The position numbers were made by a program, and so were the translations under genes. Shown piece after piece: positions 10,624 through 57,506 of a stretch of DNA of 64,000 nt. The stretch comes from an uncultured Planctomycetia bacterium. GTDB lineage: Bacteria > Omnitrophota > Gorgyraeia > Duberdicusellales > 4484-171. The DNA lies in contig CAZSDJ010000002.1 of NCBI GenBank assembly GCA_964605645.1, positions 394-64,393 of the forward strand, read 5' to 3'. The notes under the pieces were generated by a model that did no database searches, was not told where the DNA came from, and saw only the letters and a program-made list of their open reading frames with translations. Numbering within the stretch: position 1 is the stretch's first letter; each line of letters begins with the position of its first letter.

Positions 10624-10630
10624 GTAGGAA

Positions 10631-10790
10631 AGATACAAGATACAAGAAACAAGATGCAAATAAATTCCAAATCCCAATATCCAATAATCAAACATAGACC
10701 AGAGGGGTAGTTTGAAAATTGGTTATTGTATCTTGGTTATTGTTTGTATCTTGTAACTTGTATCTTGGTTATTTCGATTGTGCCTTGATT
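10631..10790. repeat. inverted arrays of heptamer repeats (CAAGATA)n ... (TATCTTG)n in lolD-ilvE intergenic region
   Basis: agatacaagatacaagaaacaagatgc at 10631-10657. Complementary ttgtatcttggttattgtttgtatcttgtaacttgtatcttgg at 10726-10768. Can pair into a long imperfect hairpin. Confidence 0.6.
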
Positions 10791-10831
10791 GTTGGTTGTT
10801 TTGATTACGAAAATGTTACAGGAGGAGTAAG

Positions 10832-11707: not shown

Positions 11708-11760
11708 TTAAAAAAATTAGATAATGTTAAAAATTTAATGAAAAATGAAATAATATTGTC

Positions 11761-11788
11761 ATTGCGAGGAGCACAGCGACGAAGCAAT
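11761..11788. repeat. ATTGCGAGGAGC-N-CGACGAAGCAAT element (copy 1)
   Basis: 28-nt element with 5-bp terminal inverted repeat ATTGC/GCAAT. A near-identical copy is at 53899-53927. Confidence 0.6.
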
Positions 11789-11811
11789 CTTTATGACTGG
11801 CGAGGAATAAA

Positions 11812-11990
11812 GTATTCGCTAAATAATTTCATTAAGTATAAAGGCATCTCGCCGAGGAAGTTGGCTCGATGTCATTAAAAATAAAGGTATTCGTTGAAGA
11901 ATAATATTAGGTATAAGGCATCTCGCCGAGGAAGTCGGCTCGATGTCATTAAAAATAAAGGTATTCGCTAAATATATTCATTTTTAATGA
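11812..11990. repeat. about 75-bp tandem direct repeat (2.3 copies) in clpC upstream region
   Basis: Unit gtattcgctaaataatttcattaagtataaaggcatctcgccgaggaagttggctcgatgtcattaaaaataaag. Copies at 11812-11886, 11887-11961, partial 11962-11990. Confidence 0.7.
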
Positions 11991-12000: not shown

Positions 12001-14442
12001 ATGTTTAATCGATTTACGGAACGGGCCAGAAAGGTATTAGTGTTAGCAAAAGAAGAATCAAGGAGATTTAATCATGATTATATCGGCACAGAACATATTC
12101 TTCTCGGTTTAATCCGAGAAGGAGAAGGCGTTGCTTGTGCTGTTTTACAAAATATTGGTATGGATTTAGGGCGCCTGCGGGCCGAAATAGAAAAGCTGAT
12201 GTCGCCGGGCAGCACAGCATCAGTTTTAGGAGATATCCCTTTTACGCCGCGGGCAAAAAAAGCATTAGAACTTGCTACCGAAGAGGCGCGGGGATTAGGG
12301 CATAATTACATCGGCACAGAACATATTTTGTTGGGGTTATTGCGGGAAGAAGAGGGGATTGCTTCTCAGGTTCTTTTTTCGTTAGGGGTAGATATCAAAA
12401 AAGCAAAAAATGAAATAGCTGCACTTTTAGGGGGAGTGTCAGAATCGAGCCGCGCTCAATCAAAAAGAACTGCATCGAGGACCCCGGCTCTAGATTCTTT
12501 TGGCAAGGACCTTACTAAATTACAAAAAGAAGGCGAATTGGATCCGGTTATCGGCAGGAAAGCGGAAATTGAAAGAGTAATCCAGATTTTGTCGCGGCGA
12601 ACCAAGAATAATCCGGTGCTGTTGGGAGAAGCCGGAGTGGGCAAAACTGCGATTGTAGAGGGGTTGGCACAAAGTGTTGTGAGAGGCGATGTGCCGGAGA
12701 TTTTACGCAATAAGAGGATAATAGTACTTGATTTAGCATTGATGATTGCCGGGACTAAATACAGAGGCCAGTTTGAAGAGCGAATTAAAGCGGTGATGGA
12801 AGAAATTAAACGTTCTAAAGATGTAATAATTTTTGTTGATGAACTTCATACTTTAGTTGGCGCAGGAGCTGCGGAAGGCGCAATTGATGCATCAAATATT
12901 TTAAAACCGGCATTATCAAGAGGAGAAATCCAATGTATCGGAGCAACAACCTTAGATGAGTATCGCAAGCACATTGAAAAAGATGCAGCTCTGGAGAGAA
13001 GGTTTCAGATGATTTTTGTGGAACCAAATACCGTATCAGAAACAATTCAAATTTTAGAAGGCTTAAGAGACAAGTATGAAGCTCATCATCGCGTGAAATT
13101 TACTGATGAATCTCTTGCAGCTGCGGCTAAATTTTCAGATCGTTATGTTTCAGGCCGGTTCTTACCGGATAAAGCTATTGATTTAATTGATGAAGCAGGA
13201 GCAAGGTCTCGGCTTGCAATATTAACTGCTCCGGATGGAGTAAAAAAAATAGAAGATAAAATCTCGGAAATAGTTAGAGAAAAAGAAGCTTTTATCAGGC
13301 AGCAAGATTTTGAACAGGCAGCAAAATTGAGGGATGAAGAAAAAAAACTGCGTTTTGAACTCGAAGATTTAAGGCGTGAATGGGGGAAAAAGAGAGATAA
13401 AATTTCACCGGAGGTAAAGGAAGAGGATATTGCTAAATTGGTTTCACAAATAACAGGAGTACCTACTTATCGGTTAGAGCAAAAAGAATCAGAAAAATTA
13501 ATGAAGATGGAAGATTATTTATCGAAAAAAGTTATTGGCCAAGCAGAACCAATTCATGCGATTTCGCGGGCGGTACGCAGGGCCAGAGCCGGGGTTAAGG
13601 AACCGCGCCGGCCGATTGGTTCTTTTATGTTTTTAGGCCCTACTGGGGTAGGGAAAACTTTATTGGCAAGAGCCTTAACGGAATTTATGTTTGGTAATGA
13701 AGAATCATTAATTCAGTTGGATATGAGTGAATATATGGAAAAATTTAATGTATCAAGGCTGGTAGGGGCTCCGCCGGGTTATGTTGGCTATGAAGAAGGC
13801 GGGCAATTAACCGAAAGGGTAAGGCGGAGGCCGTATTCTGTAATTTTGTTGGATGAGATAGAAAAGGCACATCCTGATGTATACAATCTGTTACTCCAGA
13901 TTTTAGAAGAAGGCCGTCTCACTGACAGTTATGGGCGATCGGTAGATTTTAGAAATGTAATCTTGATTATGACTTCTAACGTAGGAGCAGATATTATTCG
14001 TCAAAAAGGGTCGTTAGGGTTTAAATCCAAGCAGGAAGGTGTTGGTTATCAGGAAATGAAAACAGCCTTATTAGATGAGGTTAAAAAGAAATTTAAGCCG
14101 GAATTTCTAAACAGGTTAGATGAAATTACGGTTTTTAAATCTTTAGATAAAAAATCATTAGAAAAAATAGTTGAAATAGAAATAGGGTATGTAAACCGGC
14201 GGCTTCAAGATCAAGGTTTTGTGGTAAAACTTAGCCCGGGAGCTAAGGATTTTTTTATTGAAAAAGGCTTTGATCCAAGTTATGGGGCCCGGCCCTTAAA
14301 AAGAGTTATCCAGAGATTTTTAGAAGACCCTTTAGCCGAGGATATTATTAAAGGCAGATTTTCCGAAAGAATAAAGAAGGCAAAAGAAAAGCCAATTACA
14401 ATTAAAGCTTTAAAAAAAGGACAAATATTAAAATTTGAATGA
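12001..14442 (+). CDS. clpC: ATP-dependent Clp protease ATP-binding subunit ClpC
   Basis: Two N-terminal Clp R repeats, two AAA+ modules (GEAGVGKT and GPTGVGKT), UVR-like linker [26 protein letters not shown]. 813 aa. Confidence 0.92.
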
Positions 14443-16837: not shown

Positions 16838-16887
16838 AAGTCCAAAGTTTTTTGACATAGGACGTAGGACATAGGACGATGGACTAT
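16838..16887. repeat. heptamer repeat array (GGACNTA)x5 preceded by AAGTCCAAAGT, mlaF-mlaD spacer
   Basis: aagtccaaagttttttgacataggacgtaggacataggacgatggactat. Member of the dispersed AAGTCC/GGAC heptamer family. Confidence 0.7.
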
Positions 16888-29314: not shown

Positions 29315-30310
29315 ATGGGATTGACAGATACTATTAAAAAAATGTTGGAAGGAGGGGTTCATTTTGGGCATCTGAAGCGCAATTGGAACCCTAAAATGAA
29401 GAAATTTATTTTTGGTAGAAAGAAGAATATTTATATTATTGACTTAGAAAAAACTACTAAAAAGTTAGATCAAGCAAAAGAATTTGTTAAAGAAATAGCC
29501 AAATCAGGCGGGAATATTCTTTTTGTGGGGACCAAAAGGCAGATTAGGCCGGTGATTAAAGAGTTGGCAAATTCGTGTGACATGCCTTATGTGGACCAAA
29601 AATGGGTAGGAGGCTTGCTTACCAATTTTTCTACTATCAAAAAACGCTTGCAAAGATATCAAGAACTTCTCAAAATGCGGGAAAATGGAGAATTCGACGA
29701 CATCCCCAGTAAAGAAGTGGTGCGCCTGAATCGCCAAATTAGCCGGATGGATAAAAATTATAGTGGGCTGACCTCACTTACAACTTTACCGGATTGCGTG
29801 TTTGTGGTAGATCCAAAAAGAGAAAAATCTTCTGTAAGAGAAACAGCTAAATTATCAATTCCTTTGGTGGCTCTAATTGATACCGATGCTAACCCTGAAG
29901 AAGTAGATTACCCTATCCCCGGTAATGATGATGCAATTAGATCAGTAAAATTTATTGTCAGTTCTTTAGTTGAGGCGATAGAGGCCGGAAGAGAAAGTTA
30001 CCACAAAATAGAAAAAGAAAAAGAATCTAAAGAAAATAAAGAATTAAATGGCCAAGAAGAAAAATCGGAAGATGGAACCGAACAAGATAAAGAGCAGCAA
30101 GGAGAGAAAAAAGAGAAGGGAGAGAAATCCGAAATAGGAAATGCGAAATCCGAAAAGGAGAAAGGAGAAGAACAAAAAGAGAAATCCGAAATACGAAATA
30201 CGAAATCCGAAAAGGAGAAAGGAGAAGAACAAAAAGAGAAATCCGAAATAGGAAATGCGAAATCCGAAAAGGAGAAAGGAGAAACAAACAAAGAGGAGGA
30301 AGAGGAGTAG
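29315..30310 (+). CDS. rpsB: 30S ribosomal protein S2 with about 95-aa acidic/lysine-rich tandem-repeat C-terminal extension
   Basis: N-terminal S2 core (GVHFGH, ILFVGTKRQ, FVVDP...AL...IP). The tail contains three 19-aa repeats EKSEIGNAKSEKEKGEEQK. Confidence 0.9.
   Translation: MGLTDTIKKMLEGGVHFGHLKRNWNPKMKKFIFGRKKNIYIIDLEKTTKKLDQAKEFVKEIAKSGGNILFVGTKRQIRPVIKELANSCDMPYVDQKWVGGLLTNFSTIKKRLQRYQELLKMRENGEFDDIPSKEVVRLNRQISRMDKNYSGLTSLTTLPDCVFVVDPKREKSSVRETAKLSIPLVALIDTDANPEEVDYPIPGNDDAIRSVKFIVSSLVEAIEAGRESYHKIEKEKESKENKELNGQEEKSEDGTEQDKEQQGEKKEKGEKSEIGNAKSEKEKGEEQKEKSEIRNTKSEKEKGEEQKEKSEIGNAKSEKEKGETNKEEEEE
30122..30292 (+). repeat. 3 x 57-bp tandem repeat within rpsB 3' coding region
   Basis: Unit gagaaatccgaaataggaaatgcgaaatccgaaaaggagaaaggagaagaacaaaaa repeated in-frame. 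Explains the spurious minus-strand ORFs at 29998-30380. Confidence 0.85.
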
Positions 30311-32283: not shown

Positions 32284-32323
32284 ATTAGCCAATGGCTAAT
32301 GGCTAATAGCTATAAGCTAAATT

Positions 32324-39423: not shown

Positions 39424-39426
39424 ATT

Positions 39427-39458
39427 AGTCCATAGTCCAAAGTCCTATGTCCAAAGTC
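39427..39458. repeat. heptamer repeat array (AGTCCNN)x4.5 after DAHP synthase stop
   Basis: agtccatagtccaaagtcctatgtccaaagtc. Overlaps the annotated tyrA 5' end, whose true start may be 39474. Confidence 0.7.
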
Positions 39459-40310
39459 AATATTAGAAATGATATGGAGTTGAAGCAAGTTAAAAAAGTT
39501 GGGGTTATCGGAGTTGGTTTAATGGGGGGCTCTTTAGCCTTGGCTCTTAAGAAAAGTTTCAATAATTTTGAGATTATAGGCCATGCCAGAAGCGATAAAA
39601 CATTTAGGCGCCTTAGAAAAGCAAAGGTCTTAGATAGGATTGAAAGGTCTGATAAAAAAATTGCTCAAGAAGCGGATATTCTAATTTTAGCTACTCCGGT
39701 GGGGATAATTATTGATCTTTTAAAGAAATTAGCTCCTCACCTTAAAAAAGGAGCAATTGTTTTTGATTTAGGAAGCAGTAAAAAAGAAATAGAAAAAATA
39801 GCTAAAAGCAATCTTTCTAAAGGAGTTTATTTTGTGGGTTGCCATCCTTTTTGCGGTTCAGAAAAAAAAGGAGTTGCCAGAGCCAGAGGGGATCTTTACC
39901 AAGATTCAATATGCTTTATAACTTCAAAAAATAAAGCAACACCGGTAGTTTCCAAAATTTGGAAAAAAATTGGTGCTATTGTTATTCAAGTAAACTCAAA
40001 AGCTCATGATAAAATTACTTGTTTTCTTTCGCACCTACCTCATCTTATTTGTTTTTCTTTGCTGAATACAGTACCGAATAATTATTTAAATTTCAGTTCG
40101 TCAGGTTTTCGTGATTTTACCAGAATCGGTTCTTCTTCCGATAGCCTTTGGACCGATATTTTTTTAACCAACAAAAAAGAAATATTAAAAAGTATAAATA
40201 AAACAAAAAAAGAAATAGGTAAATTTACTAAAGCAATTAAAACAGAAGACCGGAAAAAAATAAAAATATTAATAAAGAAAGCAAACAGAAAAAGAACTAA
40301 AGTTTTATGA
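39447..40310 (+). CDS. tyrA: prephenate dehydrogenase
   Basis: Rossmann VGVIGVGLMGGSLALAL. Alternative start 39474 (MELKQVKK) would place the heptamer repeat in the intergenic region. Confidence 0.8.
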   Translation: MSKVNIRNDMELKQVKKVGVIGVGLMGGSLALALKKSFNNFEIIGHARSDKTFRRLRKAKVLDRIERSDKKIAQEADILILATPVGIIIDLLKKLAPHLKKGAIVFDLGSSKKEIEKIAKSNLSKGVYFVGCHPFCGSEKKGVARARGDLYQDSICFITSKNKATPVVSKIWKKIGAIVIQVNSKAHDKITCFLSHLPHLICFSLLNTVPNNYLNFSSSGFRDFTRIGSSSDSLWTDIFLTNKKEILKSINKTKKEIGKFTKAIKTEDRKKIKILIKKANRKRTKVL

Positions 40311-42801: not shown

Positions 42802-43386
42802 ATGAAAAAAGGTGCATTAAGAGAGTGGATTGAATCAATAGTTGTTGCAGCGATTTTGGTAATAATTTTAAAAATGTTTTTCTTTCAAATGTATAAAATC
42901 CCTACTACTTCAATGGTTCCCACTTTGATGCCGGGAGATAAAATTTTTGTCAGTAAATTAAGTTATGGGCCAAAGCTCCCGTTTAGTTTATTGCGCTTGC
43001 CCGGATTTAGTAAGGTTAAGAGAGGAGATGTAATTGTTTTTGTTCCGCCGGATGAAGTCAATCAGCCATGGTACAGGCGGAAACCTTATATAAAAAGAGT
43101 TATTGGCTTACCGGGAGAGATGGTGCAGATAAAAAAAGGAAATATCAGGATTAATGATCAAGAAATTTTAATGCCGGAGATTGCTGCGTTTTTTTATTAT
43201 AATCAAGGCAAATACGGAGATTTAGAAAAAAAAGTAATTGTTCCCCAAGATAAATATTTTTGTTTAGGCGATAATAGCATTAGTTCCAAGGATAGCCGCT
43301 ATTGGGGGTTTGTAGATCAAGAACAAATTATTGGGGAAGCACTTTTTATTTGGTGGCCGCCAAAAAGAATCGGGATGATTGAATGA
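42802..43386 (+). CDS. lepB: signal peptidase I
   Basis: S26 motifs SMVPTLMPGD (Ser nucleophile), KRVIGLPGE, GDNSISSKDSRYWG. Immediately after lepA as in E. coli. Confidence 0.9.
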   Translation: MKKGALREWIESIVVAAILVIILKMFFFQMYKIPTTSMVPTLMPGDKIFVSKLSYGPKLPFSLLRLPGFSKVKRGDVIVFVPPDEVNQPWYRRKPYIKRVIGLPGEMVQIKKGNIRINDQEILMPEIAAFFYYNQGKYGDLEKKVIVPQDKYFCLGDNSISSKDSRYWGFVDQEQIIGEALFIWWPPKRIGMIE

Positions 43387-43700
43387 TTAAAAGTCCAAAG
43401 TCCAAAGTCCAAAGTCCAAAGTCAATAAAAGAGATTAGTTTACTTTTTATAATAGGTTTGTTTTTAATTGGTTGCATTAGAACTCAGGAATATATTTATC
43501 AAGAGGATGCTTTTAAGAAAGTTGAAGAAGTTGAAGGACAGCCGGAAGAAAAGTTAGAAATTGGCCAAGAAAAATGGATGGATATTTATTTCGAAGAAAA
43601 TAATTTTATTATGCAGTGTCCGGTTTGTATGAGAAGATATCCGGGCAATGTAGAAAAATGTCCTTATGATGGGGCAAATTTAGATAAAATTAAGGAGTAA
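43383..43700 (+). CDS. small lipoprotein with C-terminal zinc-ribbon (CPVC...CPYDG); N-terminus encoded by heptamer repeat
   Basis: Start overlaps the lepB stop (ATGA). N-terminus KSPKSKVQSPKS translates the (AAGTCC)n array. Lipobox LIGC. C-terminal CxxC-x13-CxxDG. Confidence 0.5.
   Translation: MIKSPKSKVQSPKSIKEISLLFIIGLFLIGCIRTQEYIYQEDAFKKVEEVEGQPEEKLEIGQEKWMDIYFEENNFIMQCPVCMRRYPGNVEKCPYDGANLDKIKE
43391..43423. repeat. heptamer repeat array (AAGTCCA)x4.5
   Basis: aagtccaaagtccaaagtccaaagtccaaagtc. The most regular copy of the family. Confidence 0.8.
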
Positions 43701-47838: not shown

Positions 47839-50503
47839 CCAACTCCGAAAAAAATACATAAACTTCTTTAAAGAAAAAGGCCACCGGCTTTTTCCTTCTG
47901 ATAGCTTAGTTCCTGATGATCCTTCAGTTCTTTTTACTTCAGCGGGCATGAATCAATTTAAACCTTATTTTCTTGGCCAAAATAAAAAAGTAAATACAGC
48001 TGTATCTTGTCAAAGGTGCTTGCGTACCGGCGATATTGAAAGAGTAGGGCAAACTCCTTATCATCATACTTTTTTTGAAATGTTAGGTAATTTTTCTTTT
48101 GGGGATTATTTTAAAAAGAAAGCAATAAGTTTAGCTTGGGAATTCCTGACTCAAACTTTAAAAATTGATAAAAAAGATCTTTGGGTCTCAGTTTATAAAA
48201 AAGATAAAGAAGCTTTTTCAATTTGGAAGGATGAAATAGGAGTTTCCACCAAAAAAATATTAAAATTAGGCCAAGATGAGAATTTTTGGCCGGCTAATGT
48301 TATTGAGGAGGGGCCCTGCGGCCCCTGCGGCCCTTGTTCTGAAATTTTTTTTGATCGAGGCAACAATATTGGGTGCAAAAAAAAATCTTGCAATCCAACC
48401 TGTGATTGTAATCGTTTTGTAGAAATTTGGAATCTTGTTTTTACTCAATTCAACCGGCAAGCCGACAAAAACCTAAAGCCATTACCTCAAAAAAATATTG
48501 ATACCGGGATGGGGCTGGAAAGGATGGCTTCTGTTTTACAAAATAAAGATTCTAATTTTGAAATTGATATTTTAGCTCCGGCGGTTAGCAAAGTAAAAGA
48601 AATATTAAAATTAGATAAAAATTTTGATAAAAATTATTTAATCAATTCCATTGTTGATCATTCCCGTGCAGTTGTGTTTTCAATAGCGGATGGGGTGTAC
48701 CCTTCTAATGAAGAACGAGGCTATGTTATCCGTAAATTATTGCGAAAATCTTTGTGGGCTGCTAATCTTTGTGGTTATAAAGAATCATTTGTTTATAAAT
48801 TATTACCTATATTTATTAAAACGATGCAGGAACCTTATCCTTACTTGGCAAAAAAAGAAAAAGTAATAAAAAAGGTTATAAAAGCGGAAGAAGAAAAGTT
48901 TATTCTCTCCTTAGAAGAAGGGAAAAATAAATTTTTTGAATATTTAAAAGAATTAAAAAATAAAAATAAAAAAATTTTGCCGGCAACAAAATTGTTTCGC
49001 CTTTACGATACTTACGGTTTTCCTTTTGAGTTAAGTGAAACTATGGCAAAAGAAAATAATATTAATGTTGACAAGCAAGGAGCAAAAAAGCTATTGGCAA
49101 AACAAAAAGAACGTTCTCGGGCCGGCAGTAAGTTTTTAAAAGATATATTTACAAAGAATTCCTCTCTGTTTGGCGGCAGCGAGCCTACAATTTTTGTTGG
49201 TTATCAAAAAATAAAAACTAATGCTCGAATTAGTCATATTTTGCCCATAGACAAAATGAAAGTTAATTGGCACAAGCAAAAACAGCAACTTCAAGAAGGA
49301 GAAACCGGAGTAATTATTTTAGACAAAACTTCTTTTTATCCGGAATCCGGCGGGCAACTTTCTGATTGCGGCCGGATCAAAACTAATCAAGGAGTATTTT
49401 TTGTAGAGAATGTGTATAAAATAGGTGATGGAGATATTTTTGTTCACCGGGGAAAAGTTATTGAAGGTATAATTAAAAAAGAAGATGCAGAATTAATAGT
49501 TGACCAAAAAAGAAGGCAAGCCTTAAAAAGGGCTCATACTGCAACGCACCTTCTTCAAGCAGCTTTAAAACATTGCTTGGGAGATCATGTAAGCCAACAG
49601 GGTTCTTTAGTTGATGTAGATAGATTACGCTTTGATTTTACTCATTTTAAAGCGTTAACTAAAAAAGAAATAGAAACTACAGAAGAGTTAGTAAATACTT
49701 ATATTTTTGCAGCAAATAAGATTAATAAAGAAGAAAAATCTTTAGAGCAGGCTAAAAAAGAAGGAGCACTGGCATTTTTTAAAGAAAAGTATAAAGATAA
49801 AGTTAGAATGGTTTCTGTAGCTAACTATAGTAAAGAATTGTGTGGAGGTACTCATTTAGAAAATACTTCAGAAGTAGGGGGTTTTGCAATAGTTTCAGAA
49901 AGTTCAGTAAGCAGTGGGATAAGAAGAATTGAAGCGATAACCGGAAATAAATTCTATCGGCTTTTTAAGCAGAATGAAAAAGAAATTATCGATTTAGCCC
50001 AGCTGCTTAAATGCAATCCTGCCAGTATCAAACAAACTATTATAAAAACAATAAATAGTTACAAAGATTGCAAGAGTGAGATTGGTAAAATTGCTAAAGA
50101 AAAAATTTTAGATATTTCTAAAAAATTAATTAAAGATTCTGCTGAAAAAATTAAGGGTATCGATTTGGTAGTCTATGATTTTACAAAAAAAGATAATTTT
50201 AACCTAGAATACAATAATTTTTTTGATTTATTGGATATAACCAAAAAACAAATAAAATTATTTTTTATTTTTGTAATTGGCCGGCAGAATGATAAAATAA
50301 GGTTTTTTTGTTCTTGCTCAAAACAACTCAATAAGAAAGGAATAAGTTGCCGGAGTTTTATCAATCAATTTAAAGAGGAGCTGCCCATAAAAGGCGGCGG
50401 CACCGATAGTTTAGTGCAGGGGGTTGTAAGCGGCAAAGGTAACAACTTGGATCAGAAGGTTAAAAAATGTATTGTGAGGTATTTAAAAAATGAGAGTAGT
50501 TAG
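47828..50503 (+). CDS. alaS: alanine--tRNA ligase
   Basis: Class II catalytic core with GPCGPC(GPC)SEIFFD. Editing domain HTATHLL and CGGTH. C-terminal DHHA1 with GGG. 891 aa. Confidence 0.95.
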   Translation: MKTNQLRKKYINFFKEKGHRLFPSDSLVPDDPSVLFTSAGMNQFKPYFLGQNKKVNTAVSCQRCLRTGDIERVGQTPYHHTFFEMLGNFSFGDYFKKKAISLAWEFLTQTLKIDKKDLWVSVYKKDKEAFSIWKDEIGVSTKKILKLGQDENFWPANVIEEGPCGPCGPCSEIFFDRGNNIGCKKKSCNPTCDCNRFVEIWNLVFTQFNRQADKNLKPLPQKNIDTGMGLERMASVLQNKDSNFEIDILAPAVSKVKEILKLDKNFDKNYLINSIVDHSRAVVFSIADGVYPSNEERGYVIRKLLRKSLWAANLCGYKESFVYKLLPIFIKTMQEPYPYLAKKEKVIKKVIKAEEEKFILSLEEGKNKFFEYLKELKNKNKKILPATKLFRLYDTYGFPFELSETMAKENNINVDKQGAKKLLAKQKERSRAGSKFLKDIFTKNSSLFGGSEPTIFVGYQKIKTNARISHILPIDKMKVNWHKQKQQLQEGETGVIILDKTSFYPESGGQLSDCGRIKTNQGVFFVENVYKIGDGDIFVHRGKVIEGIIKKEDAELIVDQKRRQALKRAHTATHLLQAALKHCLGDHVSQQGSLVDVDRLRFDFTHFKALTKKEIETTEELVNTYIFAANKINKEEKSLEQAKKEGALAFFKEKYKDKVRMVSVANYSKELCGGTHLENTSEVGGFAIVSESSVSSGIRRIEAITGNKFYRLFKQNEKEIIDLAQLLKCNPASIKQTIIKTINSYKDCKSEIGKIAKEKILDISKKLIKDSAEKIKGIDLVVYDFTKKDNFNLEYNNFFDLLDITKKQIKLFFIFVIGRQNDKIRFFCSCSKQLNKKGISCRSFINQFKEELPIKGGGTDSLVQGVVSGKGNNLDQKVKKCIVRYLKNESS

Positions 50504-51710
50504 AAACATAGAAAGCTTAAAAAAAGTAATTGATAAAAGAAGAGTGCGCAAAGATAGTGTTAACCTAAAGGTTGCTAAAATTATTGCAAAAGTTAAACAA
50601 GAAGGGGATAAGGCCTTAGTCGATTATACTAAAAAATTTGATAAAGTGAAAATTCCTTTAAAAGCTATTCAAATTAGCGAATCAGAAGTAAGTGCGGCTT
50701 TTGGAGATTTAAATTCAGCACTTATTTCCAGCTTTAAAATAGCTATTGAAAATATTACTAAATTTTATAAAAAACAAATCCCCAAAGCCAGAAGAACAAA
50801 AGACCCTAATGGCAAAAAACTTATTAGCCGTTATGTTCCTTTGGCTAAAGTTGGGGTTTATGTCCCGGCTGGTACAGCTCCGCTCGTGTCTTCTGTGTAT
50901 ATGTCTGTGATCCCGGCGTTGGTAGCAGGAGTTGATGAAGTCGTATTAGTTTCACCGCCGAATAAAGAAGGCAGAATTAATCCTTTTATTTTAGCTATTG
51001 CATCTTTATTGAAAATTAAAAAAATATATCGAGCCGGCGGCGCGCAAGCTATTGCTGCTTTAGCTTATGGCACAGAAACTATTGAAAAAGTTGATAAAAT
51101 TGTCGGTCCCGGTAATGAATATGTTACCGAGGCAAAAAGGCAAGTTTTTGGGCAAGCTGATATTGATATGTTAGCCGGGCCTTCCGAGGTTGTGGTGGTA
51201 GCATCCAGTAATTCAAACGTTGACTACATTATTGCTGATCTGGACGCTCAGATAGAACATTATAAAGGGTTAGGGATTGTGGTTACTAATTCAAAGCGAA
51301 TTATTAGGGCCCTGCGGCAAAGTAAAGTTACCGGTTATGCTTTAAGGGTAAGGAATTTGGATAAGGCAGTCGAAGTAGTCAACCAAATTGCACCGGAACA
51401 TTTAGCAATTTTAACTAAAAAACCACATGCTTTAGTTAGTAAGATAAGAAATGCCGGAGCAATATTCTTAGGAGATTATAGTCCCGTTGCTTTAGGAGAT
51501 TATACTGCCGGGCCGTCCCATGTTCTCCCCACCGGAGGCAGCAGCCGTTTCTTTTCTACACTTTCGGTAAAAGATTTCTTAAAAGAAAGCCATATTATTC
51601 GTTATACTAAAAAAGCTGTATTAGAAGAGTTTGATACTTTAGAAAAAATTGCGAATTTAGAAGGGATGAAAAAACACATAGAAAGTGTGAGAAAACGGAT
51701 AGAAAATTAA
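50490..51710 (+). CDS. hisD: histidinol dehydrogenase
   Basis: 406 aa, HisD family (zinc and NAD binding regions). Confidence 0.9.
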
Positions 51711-51725: not shown

Positions 51726-52355
51726 ATGTTCAATAAAAAAAGAGAATCAAAATTAATGAGAAAAACTAACGAAGTAGATATTGAAGGCTGTTTTAACCTG
51801 GATGGCTCAGGTAAAACTAAAATAAATACCGGTTTTGAACCGCTTAATCATCTACTTACTTTATTTGTTTTCCATGGCTTGTTTGATTTAGAGTTGAAAG
51901 CGAAAGGTGATCTCCAACATCATATCATAGAAGATATCGGGATTGCTTTGGGAAAAGCCCTGAAAGAATCATTGGCAGAAAAAAAAGGCATAAATAGATA
52001 CGGTACTTTTTCCGCTACTATGGATAAGGTAGTGGTTGAAGCAAACATTGATATCAGCGGCAGGCCTTCTTTACAGAAAAAAGTAAGTGATGACAATAAA
52101 GCAATCGTTGAAGCTACCTTGTCCGGAGATACTTTTGATGACACAAACTTTCGTTTTAAGGATGCTGAGGAATTTTTAGAAGCATTTATTCAGCACTCGG
52201 GTTTAAGTGTGGTTTATATAATTAAATCTGGAGAAGGAGATCTGCACCATCTATTGGAAGCTTTATTTAAAGCTTTGGGTAAGGCCCTAGATCAAGCCAG
52301 TCAAATTGATCCTCGCCGTCGCGGTGTTCCTTCAACCAAGGGAATTATTGATTGA
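51726..52355 (+). CDS. hisB: imidazoleglycerol-phosphate dehydratase (monofunctional)
   Basis: IGPD motifs (TNEVDIEG, HHIIEDIGIALG, GDLHHLLEA). RBS AAGGAG supports the ATG at 51726. No fused phosphatase domain. Confidence 0.9.
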   Translation: MFNKKRESKLMRKTNEVDIEGCFNLDGSGKTKINTGFEPLNHLLTLFVFHGLFDLELKAKGDLQHHIIEDIGIALGKALKESLAEKKGINRYGTFSATMDKVVVEANIDISGRPSLQKKVSDDNKAIVEATLSGDTFDDTNFRFKDAEEFLEAFIQHSGLSVVYIIKSGEGDLHHLLEALFKALGKALDQASQIDPRRRGVPSTKGIID

Positions 52356-52357
52356 AA

Positions 52358-52463
52358 AGTCCTAAGTCCAGAGTCCTATGTCCTGTGTCGAAAAAATAAT
52401 TAAGAAAGATTTAATAAATTATAAAAATTATGACGTTGGACTTAAGACGTAGGACCTTGGACT
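52358..52463. repeat. inverted pair of heptamer arrays (AGTCCNN)x4 ... (GGACNNN)x4 flanking a 48-nt A/T-rich spacer, hisB-hisH intergenic
   Basis: Left arm aagtcctaagtccagagtcctatgtcctgtgtc at 52358-52389. Right arm ggacttaagacgtaggaccttggact at 52438-52463, the approximate reverse complement. Confidence 0.75.
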
Positions 52464-52471
52464 AAAATATT

Positions 52472-53128
52472 ATGACAGTAATAGTTGACTATGGGATGGG
52501 TAATTTAGAGAGTGTAAAAAACGCGGTTCTTTTTTTAGACAAAAAAGTAATTATTACCAGCTCACCTAAAGACTTACTCGCGGCTGAAAAGATTATTTTT
52601 CCCGGTGTGGGCCATTTTGGAAAAGCAATAACTGAATTAAAAAAAAGAGGGCTTGTTGAAATTTTAAAGAAAAGAATTAACCAAGGTATACCTTTTTTAG
52701 GAATTTGTTTAGGGATGCAATTGCTATTTGAAAAAAGCAGCGAAGCAGAAGGGGTAAACGGCCTTGGCCTGATAAAAGGAGAAGTTTTAAAGTTTAATTC
52801 TAAAAATTTAATTGTGCCTCATATGGGGTGGAATCAGATAAATAAAGTCCAAAGTCCTAAGTCCAAAGTCTCCGCCTCCGCCAAGACTATGGCGGACAAG
52901 CTAAGTCAAGAAAAGGGGTTGTTTGAGGGGATTGAAGACGGCAGTTATTTTTATTTTGCCCACTCTTATTTTTGTAAGCCCCATGAAGATGTTACCTTAG
53001 CAACCGTTGATTATGGTGAAAATTTTAGTTGTGCTATACATAAAAAAAATATTTGGGCTATTCAATTTCATCCGGAAAAAAGCCAAAAGAAAGGCTTAAA
53101 AGTTTTAGATAATTTCTTAATAATTTAG
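52472..53128 (+). CDS. hisH: imidazole glycerol phosphate synthase glutaminase subunit HisH, with in-frame repeat-derived insertion
   Basis: Class I GATase triad (GICLGMQ Cys, HPE His). Extra segment KVQSPKSKVSASAKTMADKLSQEK between the GWN and LF motifs. Confidence 0.9.
   Translation: MTVIVDYGMGNLESVKNAVLFLDKKVIITSSPKDLLAAEKIIFPGVGHFGKAITELKKRGLVEILKKRINQGIPFLGICLGMQLLFEKSSEAEGVNGLGLIKGEVLKFNSKNLIVPHMGWNQINKVQSPKSKVSASAKTMADKLSQEKGLFEGIEDGSYFYFAHSYFCKPHEDVTLATVDYGENFSCAIHKKNIWAIQFHPEKSQKKGLKVLDNFLII
52845..52870. repeat. heptamer array (AAGTCCN)x3.5 inside hisH coding sequence
   Basis: aagtccaaagtcctaagtccaaagtc read in-frame as KVQSPKSKV. Followed by the tccgcctccgcc mini-repeat. Confidence 0.75.
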
Positions 53129-53996: not shown

Positions 53997-54116
53997 ACTC
54001 CCAATGACACTGAGACAAGTTGTTGCAATATGAGTTACAATTCACCTTGATAGTGCTCAGTTGCAAAAAAGGTGTTTTTTAGAATCTTTTTATGCTATAA
54101 TTATTCGAATATAATT

Positions 54117-54419
54117 ATGTTGACTAGAAAAGAAATATTTTCAATTTTAAAAAATCAATTGCCTTATTTACGCAATTATTTTGGTGTAAGCCGCATTGCA
54201 GTTTTTGGTTCTTTTGCAGAGGGTTCTCCGCGGGAAAATAGTGATGTTGATTTATTGGTTGAATTTGATAAATCACCCGGATTAAAATTTATAGAACTGA
54301 GCGAGTATCTTGAAAAAAAAATAGGTAAAAAGGTTGATATTTTGACACCGGGCGGCCTTAAAGGGATACGGCTTTCTAGAGTGGCTGAAGATATAAAGAA
54401 TAGTTTGCACTATGTCTAA
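54117..54419 (+). CDS. minimal nucleotidyltransferase (MNT) antitoxin of HepT/MNT type VII TA system
   Basis: GSFAEGSPRENSDVDLLV, a Pol-beta-type NTase GS...D.D motif. About 100 aa. Start chosen at MLTRKEIF rather than the ORF-track 54072. Confidence 0.7.
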   Translation: MLTRKEIFSILKNQLPYLRNYFGVSRIAVFGSFAEGSPRENSDVDLLVEFDKSPGLKFIELSEYLEKKIGKKVDILTPGGLKGIRLSRVAEDIKNSLHYV

Positions 54420-54759
54420 AAGAAATGATCTTGATTATATAGCAGACATCTTGGAAGCATTAAAAAGGATATTTTCTTACTGTGATAATTTGAATTATGA
54501 TCAATTTTTAGATGATGAAAAGACTCAGGATGCTGTAGTACGCAACCTTGAAATAATTGGCGAAGCATCTAAAAATATTTCTTCTGTTTTTTCTCAAAAA
54601 TATTCCGAAGTTACTTGGAGTGATTTAGCTAAAGTTAGAGACAAGCTTATTCATCATTATTTTGGTGTGAATATAGATATTGTTTGGAGTATTATCGAAA
54701 GTTCTTTGCCTAAACTGCAGAATCAATTAAAAGAGATTTATGATCGCGAGATTTGCTAG
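54412..54759 (+). CDS. HepT-like (DUF86/HEPN) RNase toxin
   Basis: HEPN Rx4HxY motif RDKLIHHY. 115 aa. Overlaps the MNT gene by 8 nt. Confidence 0.7.
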   Translation: MSKRNDLDYIADILEALKRIFSYCDNLNYDQFLDDEKTQDAVVRNLEIIGEASKNISSVFSQKYSEVTWSDLAKVRDKLIHHYFGVNIDIVWSIIESSLPKLQNQLKEIYDREIC

Positions 54760-56913: not shown

Positions 56914-57372
56914 ATGAAAGAAATCAAAGGCAAATTTGACGGTAAAGGGAAAAAGATAGCGATAGTAATTTCCCGTTTTAATGAATTAATTAGTAAGCGG
57001 TTGCTGGAAGGCTGTCTGGATACTTTAGGAAAGTGCGGGACTGACGACAAAAGTATCTCTATCTATTGGTCACCGGGTGCTTATGAAATCCCTCAAGTTT
57101 TGTCAAAATTACAGACAAGCAAGTTTGACGCAGTCGTAACTTTAGGTGCAGTGATTAGAGGCGATACGCCTCATTTTGAATATATATCTTCTGAGGTTGC
57201 AAAAGGAGTGGCGAAAGTAGCTCAAGATAAAAAAATACCAATAGCTTTTGGGATAATTACAGCTGATACCATTGAGCAAGCAACCGAAAGATCAGGGACT
57301 AAACAGGGCAATAAAGGCTCTCAGGCAGCTTTTTCTGCTTTGGAAATGGCTAACTTATACAGTCAATTATAA
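56914..57372 (+). CDS. ribH: 6,7-dimethyl-8-ribityllumazine synthase
   Basis: 152 aa lumazine synthase fold (IAIVISRFNE, GAYEIP). Confidence 0.9.
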   Translation: MKEIKGKFDGKGKKIAIVISRFNELISKRLLEGCLDTLGKCGTDDKSISIYWSPGAYEIPQVLSKLQTSKFDAVVTLGAVIRGDTPHFEYISSEVAKGVAKVAQDKKIPIAFGIITADTIEQATERSGTKQGNKGSQAAFSALEMANLYSQL

Positions 57373-57375
57373 AAC

Positions 57376-57477
57376 AGTCCAAAGTCCATAGTCCCAAGTC
57401 AAAAGAATAAACTTTATTGCTTATTTTAAAATTTAAAAATAATGACATAGGGCTTCGGACACAGGACATAGGACTAT
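57376..57477. repeat. inverted pair of heptamer arrays (AGTCCNN)x3.5 ... (GGACNNN)x4.5 flanking a 44-nt A/T-rich spacer, ribH-nusB intergenic
   Basis: Left arm agtccaaagtccatagtcccaagtc at 57376-57400. Right arm gacatagggcttcggacacaggacataggactat at 57445-57477. Confidence 0.75.
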
Positions 57478-57506
57478 AAAGTCGTTACTTAATTTTCGTT
57501 CTAAAC

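Follow-up and report, generated by a model that had tools for sequence, protein, structure and literature searches.

An excess of heptanucleotide repeats in prokaryotes, for which slippage is the proposed origin, is described in a literature, including work by Mrazek, of which two papers give summaries (PMC4679880 and PMC4692102). The TAACTGA repeats of Beggiatoaceae, cyanobacteria, and some Bacteroidetes (MacGregor 2015) are mostly intergenic and lie tight to gene ends (PMC4679880). Each set contains two to six copies in the Beggiatoa genome described, with indels in 7-nucleotide (nt) steps between strains, and ten sets lie inside open reading frames (ORFs) in the translatable orientation, specifying a peptide with a period of seven residues (LSVISYQ); an RNA polymerase beta-prime-like protein has one of them in a surface loop (PMC4679880). 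The STRR and other G-rich heptamers of Nostoc/Anabaena and the GGGAATC repeats of Xanthomonas are reported to be under-represented within coding sequences and have been studied for G-quadruplex formation (PMC4692102). Here we describe a further heptamer family, with the unit AAAGTCC, in a 64-kb stretch of the genome of an uncultured bacterium of the phylum Omnitrophota (the whole stretch is hereafter called the window), and a copy of this family inside hisH, the gene for the glutaminase subunit of imidazole glycerol phosphate synthase. The insert in hisH is probably a tolerated, translated heptanucleotide repeat that is homogenised by slippage or gene conversion, and not a feature of the enzyme.

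The expanded loop of HisH

The hisH coding sequence (52472..53128, + strand, from the ORF list) is intact and specifies 218 amino acids (aa). In a phmmer search, its product matched HisH chains of the PDB with E-values of 4.8e-41 to 6e-34, the best match being that of Vibrio cholerae (4gud, 4.8e-41), and its modelled fold aligned with 4gud, 1ka9, 7ac8, and 1gpw in Foldseek at TM values of 0.77-0.91 (0.83/0.91 for 4gud). The catalytic triad C79, H200, and E202 occupies invariant columns in an alignment of 120 orthologues, window protein included. The gene order of the his operon, i.e. hisD (50490..51710), hisB (IGPD domain), hisH, and hisA (His_biosynth domain), is kept in every related locus examined. 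Homology, the Cys-His-Glu triad, and the operon context all place the protein among the HisH-type class I glutamine amidotransferases.

The GWN motif is found at aa 119-121 and LFEGI starts at aa 150. The 28 residues between them (aa 122-149; 52835..52918, + strand), QINKVQSPKSKVSASAKTMADKLSQEKG, constitute an expanded loop, as judged from the orthologue alignment, phmmer, and model confidence, whereas the shortest Omnitrophota orthologues have only 8-10 aa at this position. The phmmer match to PDB HisH is split into two blocks, leaving query residues 125-147 (23 aa) opposite 4 residues of 4gud. The spacing between GWN and the xxHSY strand served as a ruler, by which the window protein measured 39 aa, compared with a median of 20 and a range of 18-23 in 70 of 72 HisH proteins from other phyla. 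This background set was taken from among the matches listed in a scan of genome contigs with the HisH alignment, in which generic HisH motifs dominated and a single close relative was present among the matches listed. The initial annotation of this DNA, which had described the linker between the GWN and LFxG segments as expanded, is borne out by the alignment and by these distances.

An AlphaFold model based on the 120-sequence alignment has a mean predicted local distance difference test score (pLDDT) of 89.9 and a predicted template modelling score of 0.88; an earlier run on 36 close sequences was poor over aa 114-163 and was discarded in favour of this one. Values of pLDDT below 50 are confined to aa 131-147. 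In this model, the insert is predicted to be a disordered surface loop on an otherwise well-modelled HisH, which answers the question for which structure prediction had first been suggested at this site.

The anatomy of the repeat was resolved by aligning the loop DNA with that of six orthologues. Units 1-4 (52844..52870, + strand) read AAAGTCC AAAGTCC TAAGTCC AAAGTC, and are delimited by pattern statistics, the register analysis described below, and the orthologue alignment, as well as by Tandem Repeats Finder, which reported AAAGTCC with period 7 and 3.9 copies at 52844-52870. They are followed by a 30-nt secondary insertion, TCCGCCTCCGCCAAGACTATGGCGGACAAG (52871..52900, + strand), which codes for most of SASAKTMADK. 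The terminal unit of the module, (C)TAAGTCA (52901..52908, + strand), comes after this insertion; it aligns to CAAAGTCA of the orthologues, and arrays of the family end in GTCA or GTCG. The whole repeat-derived segment is 52844-52908. The initial annotation had located it correctly but gave its span as 52845-52905, short of the complete terminal unit that follows the 30-nt insert. The derivation of KVQSPKSKV from a heptamer array of the intergenic type also stands, as the module is shared, but the unit is the 7-mer AAAGTCC and not AAGTCC; the tccgcctccgcc mini-repeat (TCCGCC TCCGCC) is indeed present at 52871-52882, but belongs to the separate 30-nt insertion.

The window hisH array is a decayed and interrupted copy, with a T substitution, the 30-nt insertion, and a terminal unit split off from the rest. 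In the loop alignment, the 30-nt insertion is absent from loci L081, L082, L085, L086, and L093 (related loci and contigs are designated here by L numbers), and a gap-free homologue, identical at 21 of 31 positions, occupies the same place in the more distant orthologue L087. It may have been gained twice or lost several times; its exact loss by mispairing would be easy because repeat units flank it on both sides. We rejected the possibility that it is a dispersed element, as neither the window nor any of the loci retrieved contained a further copy. It can form a small hairpin that is weakly better than those of shuffled sequences (z = -3.05).

AAAGTCC modules in the window and in related loci

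Our survey covered the 64 kb of the window genome and 10-20 kb around each orthologue. The window contains 13 matches to a pattern of two units, AAGTCCNAAGTCC, allowing at most one mismatch, where 0.16 would be expected, and none of 100 shuffled sequences reached 13; matches are located at 39433, 43391, 52357, 52845, and 57375. The likeness of the hisH segment to intergenic arrays is thus well above chance, as had been proposed. It has practically no probability that the region is an ordinary part of HisH, that its likeness to the arrays is accidental, or that the array is an assembly artefact, given this excess, the size of the insertion relative to the 72 proteins from other phyla and to solved structures, and the presence of the array at the equivalent site in independent NCBI and JGI assemblies.

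The register of every GTCC-core array was analysed in the window and five related loci. Nearly all arrays have the same module form of five units, i.e. [NNNGTCC]x4 followed by a unit ending in GTCA or GTCG (window and L081-L086). The window contains eight modules, 6 of which are intergenic. In the usual intergenic layout, a sense module is followed by an A+T-rich spacer and by an inverted module whose end lies a short way before the next start codon, and the GTCA ends of the paired modules point toward the spacer. Immediately upstream of hisH, a module of five units (52356..52390, + strand) lies directly after the hisB stop codon and an inverted module of five units (52431..52465, - strand) stops 6 nt short of the hisH start codon; the RNA of 52350-52472 folds at -34.1 kcal/mol (z = -6.1 against shuffles) into a long interrupted hairpin of which these modules are the left and right arms. 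A second pair consists of a four-unit left arm after a stop codon (57374..57401, + strand) and a five-unit inverted right arm (57443..57477, - strand), and the region 57370-57482 likewise folds into a long interrupted hairpin (z = -4.2 against shuffles). The register analysis also identified a solo intergenic module of five units, 2 nt past a stop codon (39425..39459, + strand), and an inverted module of five units just 5' of a ribosome-binding site and start codon (16853..16887, - strand).

The other coding copy is a perfect module, AAAGTCC x4 + AAAGTCA (43390..43424, + strand, detected by Tandem Repeats Finder), in the part of a small lipoprotein ORF (43383..43700) that specifies the n-region of the signal peptide. 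As initially reported, the N-terminus of this ORF, MIKSPKSKVQSPKS, is encoded by the array. Its orthologues in L081, L082, and L086 contain five units at the equivalent place, with substitutions; among the orthologues read there are no length variants, unit number being equal in the four species. The ORF has the lipobox LIGC, and its ATG overlaps the lepB stop codon.

The head-to-tail 7-nt units, the many intergenic copies, and the 7-nt steps between relatives identify the family as a dispersed heptanucleotide tandem repeat. With a crude detector, period-7 arrays amounted to 1.30 per 10 kb in Omnitrophota loci and 0.29 per 10 kb in loci from other phyla, an approximately 4-fold difference. As regards features of miniature inverted-repeat transposable elements or REPINs, inverted arms are present, spacers vary by site, and arrays lie at orthologous positions across species, not at new sites; no target-site duplication is evident at the window arrays. 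An Rfam scan of the whole window detected three tRNAs only, and no family covers the heptamer arrays.

The closest database relatives of the window HisH are named Candidatus Omnitrophica or Omnitrophota, and in the protein alignment many orthologues with 69-83% identity contain KVQSPKSKVQSQ in the equivalent loop. At the DNA level, L081, L082, L083, and L086 have a perfect AAAGTCC x4 + AAAGTCA (35 nt) there, and L085 has a degenerate five-unit copy. L093 has exactly two units, which is a clean 21-nt gap relative to the five of L081, L082, and L086; the left arm between hisB and hisH comprises seven units in L093 and five in the window. In more distant Omnitrophota, the loop contains other heptamers: (AGTCAAA/ATTCAAA)x5 in L089, (ATGTCAG)x5 in L090, approximately 8 AYAGACY units in L088, approximately 11 NAGACGN units in L084, and, in L001, CCAGGYT-type units in the inverse orientation of the arrays that its own genome carries just upstream of hisH. 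The window, L085, and L087 have degenerate or interrupted copies, and in L091 and L092 the array is absent or eroded; L092 has a basal 8-residue loop, and the 20 kb retrieved around its hisH shows no heptamer array. Judging from these sequences, the array at the hisH loop is older than the divergence of a large Omnitrophota group and is not private to the window genome. The initial annotation had inferred that a dispersed repeat was absorbed into an essential enzyme as a surface loop; the intact frame and triad and the location of the sole low-confidence segment of the model agree with this description, but the event was neither recent nor private, as many Omnitrophota carry the array.

Over the 120 orthologues, loop length varies from 8 to 35 aa, so that the length polymorphism proposed as a check on the insertion is present, and the histogram peaks at 8, 15, and 22 aa, with a second series at 13 and 20 aa. 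The 7-aa spacing of the peaks would be expected if coding sequence retained only those changes that involve three units (21 nt, 7 aa); as the sequences share phylogeny, the histogram is supportive and does not amount to a formal test. Outside the array, the hisH genes of L081 and L082 share 71% nucleotide identity and use the same codon at 51% of identical residues, whereas inside it they do not differ at any of the 36 nucleotides or in any of the 12 codons (0.51^12, approximately 3e-4). The perfect lipoprotein array of the window is decayed in L082 and L086, and the reverse holds for hisH, where the window copy is the decayed one. This patchy perfection and patchy decay at both coding sites is more compatible with turnover, by slippage or by conversion from other copies, than with persistent purifying selection. 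In metagenome contigs, the left flank of hisH together with the array had no match; the samples of L081 and L086, which do match this pattern, are evidently not in that collection.

These data bear on the main alternative, a rather unlikely one, namely that the array is a selected cis-acting nucleic-acid element, e.g. a platform for a conserved single-strand- or RNA-binding protein, each monomer of which would cover 7 nt, or one half of a hairpin of RNA or DNA; the copy inside hisH would be retained for that role and the peptide would be its cost. It would account for the fixed module form (about five units ending in GTCA) of coding and intergenic copies alike, for the stability of the intergenic pairs relative to shuffles, for modules that lie flush with stop and start codons, and for the perfect preservation of array DNA between L081 and L082, and binders of Csp, S1, or Csr type have been proposed for the TAACTGA heptamers (PMC4679880). 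It is difficult to reconcile, however, with the erosion, shortening, or loss of the hisH copy in the window, L085, L087, L091, L092, and L093, and the family has no Rfam match in the window. We also considered whether the array inside hisH pairs, as a conserved feature, with the inverted arm upstream of the gene, and rejected this, since the arm 5' of hisH is missing in L081, whose spacer is 26 nt, and no array was detected in the spacer of L082. Binding motifs of the HutP, TRAP, or CsrA type were likewise set aside, because no constant UAG, GAG, or GGA is present in the sense strand of the units.

It is considerably less probable that the loop is functional as protein, for instance in HisH-HisF tuning or allostery, as an SPKK-like basic tether, or as a localisation signal. 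The identity of KVQSPKSKVQSQ in several lineages speaks for such a role, as does the position of the loop after the conserved GWN strand, which reportedly contacts HisF in the solved complexes (1gpw and 7ac8). On the other hand, the peptides of other lineages differ (RCQMSDV, KIQKSKV, and RRQTKDG), being set by the local heptamer, and vary in length over the whole range given above; codons are more conserved than the peptide needs, the loop is of low model confidence, and unrelated enzymes and a signal peptide contain the identical peptide. The HisH of an Anaerolineae bacterium (L016, 9904-10011) contains in its equivalent loop an in-frame palindromic repeat, GGGGCGAAAAATATTTCGCCCC x2, with the peptide GAKNISPLWAKNISPLL. 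This repeat is unrelated to the heptamers, and shows that insertions are tolerated in this loop in an unrelated phylum as well.

Arrays in other proteins and the nature of the family

When metagenome contigs were scanned for (AAAGTCC)3, at least 120 of them (L094-L213), mostly of 50-65% G+C, were matched. Among the matches listed, there are 127 arrays, 60 of which have at least 80 open codons on either side. These 60, again among the matches listed, comprise 52 in sense and 8 in antisense orientation, and 44 lie within one continuous frame. Pfam domains surround the array in 16 of the 20 longest array-bearing ORFs among the matches listed (examples of array-bearing ORFs are L205 3340-6819, L113 2867-5884, and L172 4476-8318). 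In-frame arrays were found in Mfd, SecA, LeuRS, PurL, a Ser/Thr kinase, and TPR proteins; near the C-terminus of CarB; twice in a CobN-type chelatase; at an equivalent HHH_6 site of DnaE on two contigs, one of which has a second array; at an equivalent site after the UvrA interaction domain of UvrA on two contigs; and at an equivalent site in ABC-F proteins on two contigs. A protein search with (KVQSPKS)6 found only hypothetical ORFs of 44-74 aa without domain context. One of the array-bearing contigs, L113, was placed taxonomically: its UvrA is closest to proteins source-named Verrucomicrobiae or Limisphaerales, and one such entry has ESKVQSPKSKVGE at the site. Many UvrA entries are only 370-540 aa long despite long source contigs.

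The occurrence of AAAGTCC in both Omnitrophota and Verrucomicrobiota also speaks for a cis-acting element. Against it, peptide tolerance offers a simpler account of the sense bias (52:8, among the matches listed): since the peptide of the antisense strand, GLWTLDF, is hydrophobic, this bias is what a tolerance filter would yield.

A further alternative, and a highly improbable one, is that the arrays are phase-variation switches, in which the frame would shift whenever one 7-nt unit is gained or lost, turning hisH and the lipoprotein gene reversibly off and on. Perfect five-unit tracts in ORFs are prone to slippage, and the lipoprotein array lies within the region encoding the signal peptide, which is the classic switch position of the pentamer (CTCTT) repeat of Neisseria opa. 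Heptanucleotide repeats reportedly drive phase variation in Haemophilus, and two Verrucomicrobial UvrA entries (P0138 and P0187) end in a shifted frame just past a second repeat-bearing site, a frameshift and an assembly error being indistinguishable there. However, the frame is kept in each of the 15 orthologous hisH loci read, the lipoprotein orthologues all have five units, and the hisH tract of the window, interrupted and imperfect, is a poor substrate for slippage; moreover, hisH is a gene of a biosynthetic operon and an unlikely contingency locus. The interrupted tract and the absence of an out-of-frame allele among the 15 hisH loci do not fit a phase-variable contingency locus, although rare variants may exist. 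Candidate frameshifted alleles at metagenome arrays were also rejected: among the matches listed, arrays whose flanks are in different frames are at gene boundaries, where they form C-terminal tails or N-termini (M-SPKSKVQSPKS) like that of the window lipoprotein, and not in split genes.

A tolerated, translated repeat remains the reading that we favour. The hisH copy is one module of a dispersed [NNNGTCC]x4 + NNNGTCA family that in this genome exists mostly as intergenic inverted hairpin pairs, and it sits in the turn after the GWN strand, a site that tolerates extra residues. No frame of the module's sense strand contains a stop codon, and the peptide (KVQSPKS) is hydrophilic, consisting of Lys, Ser, Pro, and Gln, and for these reasons the enzyme could keep working with a disordered loop. 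The array would change as units are gained or lost, only steps of three units (21 nt, 7 aa) being admitted by selection that keeps the frame open, while homogenisation within the array or gene conversion from other copies would keep some arrays perfect and leave others to decay. We infer that slippage or conversion is the maintaining process and that the loop has no role in the enzyme. The hisH array may have been copied in from the dispersed family or have grown in place from a proto-repeat.

Several observations weigh against this reading. Five units is the commonest length of intergenic arms, which are under no frame constraint, and free slippage does not predict a preferred number. All 7 intergenic sense arms (window and L081-L086) begin 0-3 nt past the stop codon upstream of them. 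The perfect array of three lineages could equally reflect selection on DNA or RNA, and the presumed inertness of the loop rests on the model and on sequence. Finally, AAAGTCC arrays are found in genomes of 35% and approximately 56% G+C from two phyla, which may point to a factor or process with sequence specificity and away from generic slippage. A wider proposal, which we offer only tentatively and consider rather unlikely, is that AAAGTCC arrays are a sequence-specific element of the Planctomycetes-Verrucomicrobia-Chlamydiae (PVC) group (Omnitrophota and Verrucomicrobiota), actively propagated or maintained by a conserved trans-acting factor (a writer or reader) or by gene conversion from a large pool of copies, and that they routinely colonise loops, linkers, and termini of essential proteins such as HisH, UvrA, DnaE, Mfd, SecA, CarB, and PurL. 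If this were true, the element would be a recurrent source of quantised (7-aa) variation in protein length and possibly a genome-wide regulatory motif.

Other heptamer families are present in the window, e.g. AAGATAC, AATGGCT, and GAAATNC. AAGATAC units lie directly after a stop codon, with an inverted GTATCTT-type partner before the next gene (10626-10660 and 10744-10806), and AATGGCT units lie between tRNA genes (32284-32321). The gene for ribosomal protein S2 (29315-30310) specifies a Pfam domain at aa 10-225 followed by a Glu/Lys-rich tail of approximately 105 aa, which contains three copies of a 19-aa unit, EKSEIGNAKSEKEKGEEQK, from a 57-nt x2.9 repeat (30121-30283) made of GAAATNC-type heptamers. 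This tail is a second case of translated repeat DNA in the window. In addition, a 74-nt x2.4 tandem repeat (11740-11990), preceded by the element cattgcgaggagcacagcgacgaagcaatc, is located 5' of a gene starting at 12002. Downstream of the his genes, a toxin-antitoxin pair of an MntA-type nucleotidyltransferase and a HepT-like ribonuclease lies at 54072-54759, between hisA and rplM-rpsI. In L081, L082, L085, and L086, rplM directly follows hisA without this pair, so that the pair is an insertion in the window genome.

Comparison with known repeat systems

No paper linking heptamer repeats to Omnitrophota was found in our literature search, and none on heptamer repeats in Verrucomicrobia or Planctomycetes was among its top results. 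What is new here is the unit and the phyla that contain it, the inverted hairpin pairs adjoining stop codons, the occupation of orthologous loops of core enzymes throughout a phylum with 7-residue quantisation, and the recurrence of one heptamer across differing base compositions. This recurrence and the tight placement of modules at stop codons point to a sequence-specific process in these poorly studied bacteria.

The hisH loop illustrates a route from non-coding repeat DNA to protein that has barely been described and is widespread, in which a stop-free 7-nt unit extends permissive loops in steps of seven residues. The loop-length histogram of a conserved enzyme over a phylum can then be taken as a record of repeat dynamics. 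Clade-specific indels in housekeeping proteins, which often serve as phylogenetic signatures, can stem from the repeat load of a genome. For annotation, the family accounts for low-complexity segments of the KSKVQSP type and for small spurious ORFs over arrays.

Among known systems, the intergenic AAAGTCC pairs resemble REP/BIME and REPIN-type palindromes (PMC3116915) in being short dispersed hairpins between co-directional genes; they differ from these elements in that their arms are made of heptamer units and their inter-arm loops are not conserved. The lipoprotein ORF at 43383 shares with Neisseria opa a non-triplet repeat, here a perfect one, in the region coding for the signal peptide, but no out-of-frame alleles were seen among its orthologues and their unit number does not vary. 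With STRR and GGGAATC, AAAGTCC has in common that it is an over-represented 7-nt tandem lying mostly between co-directional genes, often with a preferred unit number and with conserved positions that show sequence and length variation between relatives (PMC4692102); unlike them, it is not G-rich and is often translated. The likeness to TAACTGA extends to short tandem sets of 7-nt units that are dispersed and positioned at gene ends, to 7-nt indels, to the location of some sets in ORFs, and to a puzzling phylogenetic distribution. However, the AAAGTCC unit, found in Omnitrophota and Verrucomicrobiota, is free of stop codons in both orientations, and its intergenic copies are inverted hairpin pairs starting from stop codons, whereas those of TAACTGA are direct sets just upstream of start codons. 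Unlike TAACTGA, AAAGTCC also has in-frame copies at orthologous sites of housekeeping enzymes in many lineages, where loops differ in length by steps of 7 aa.

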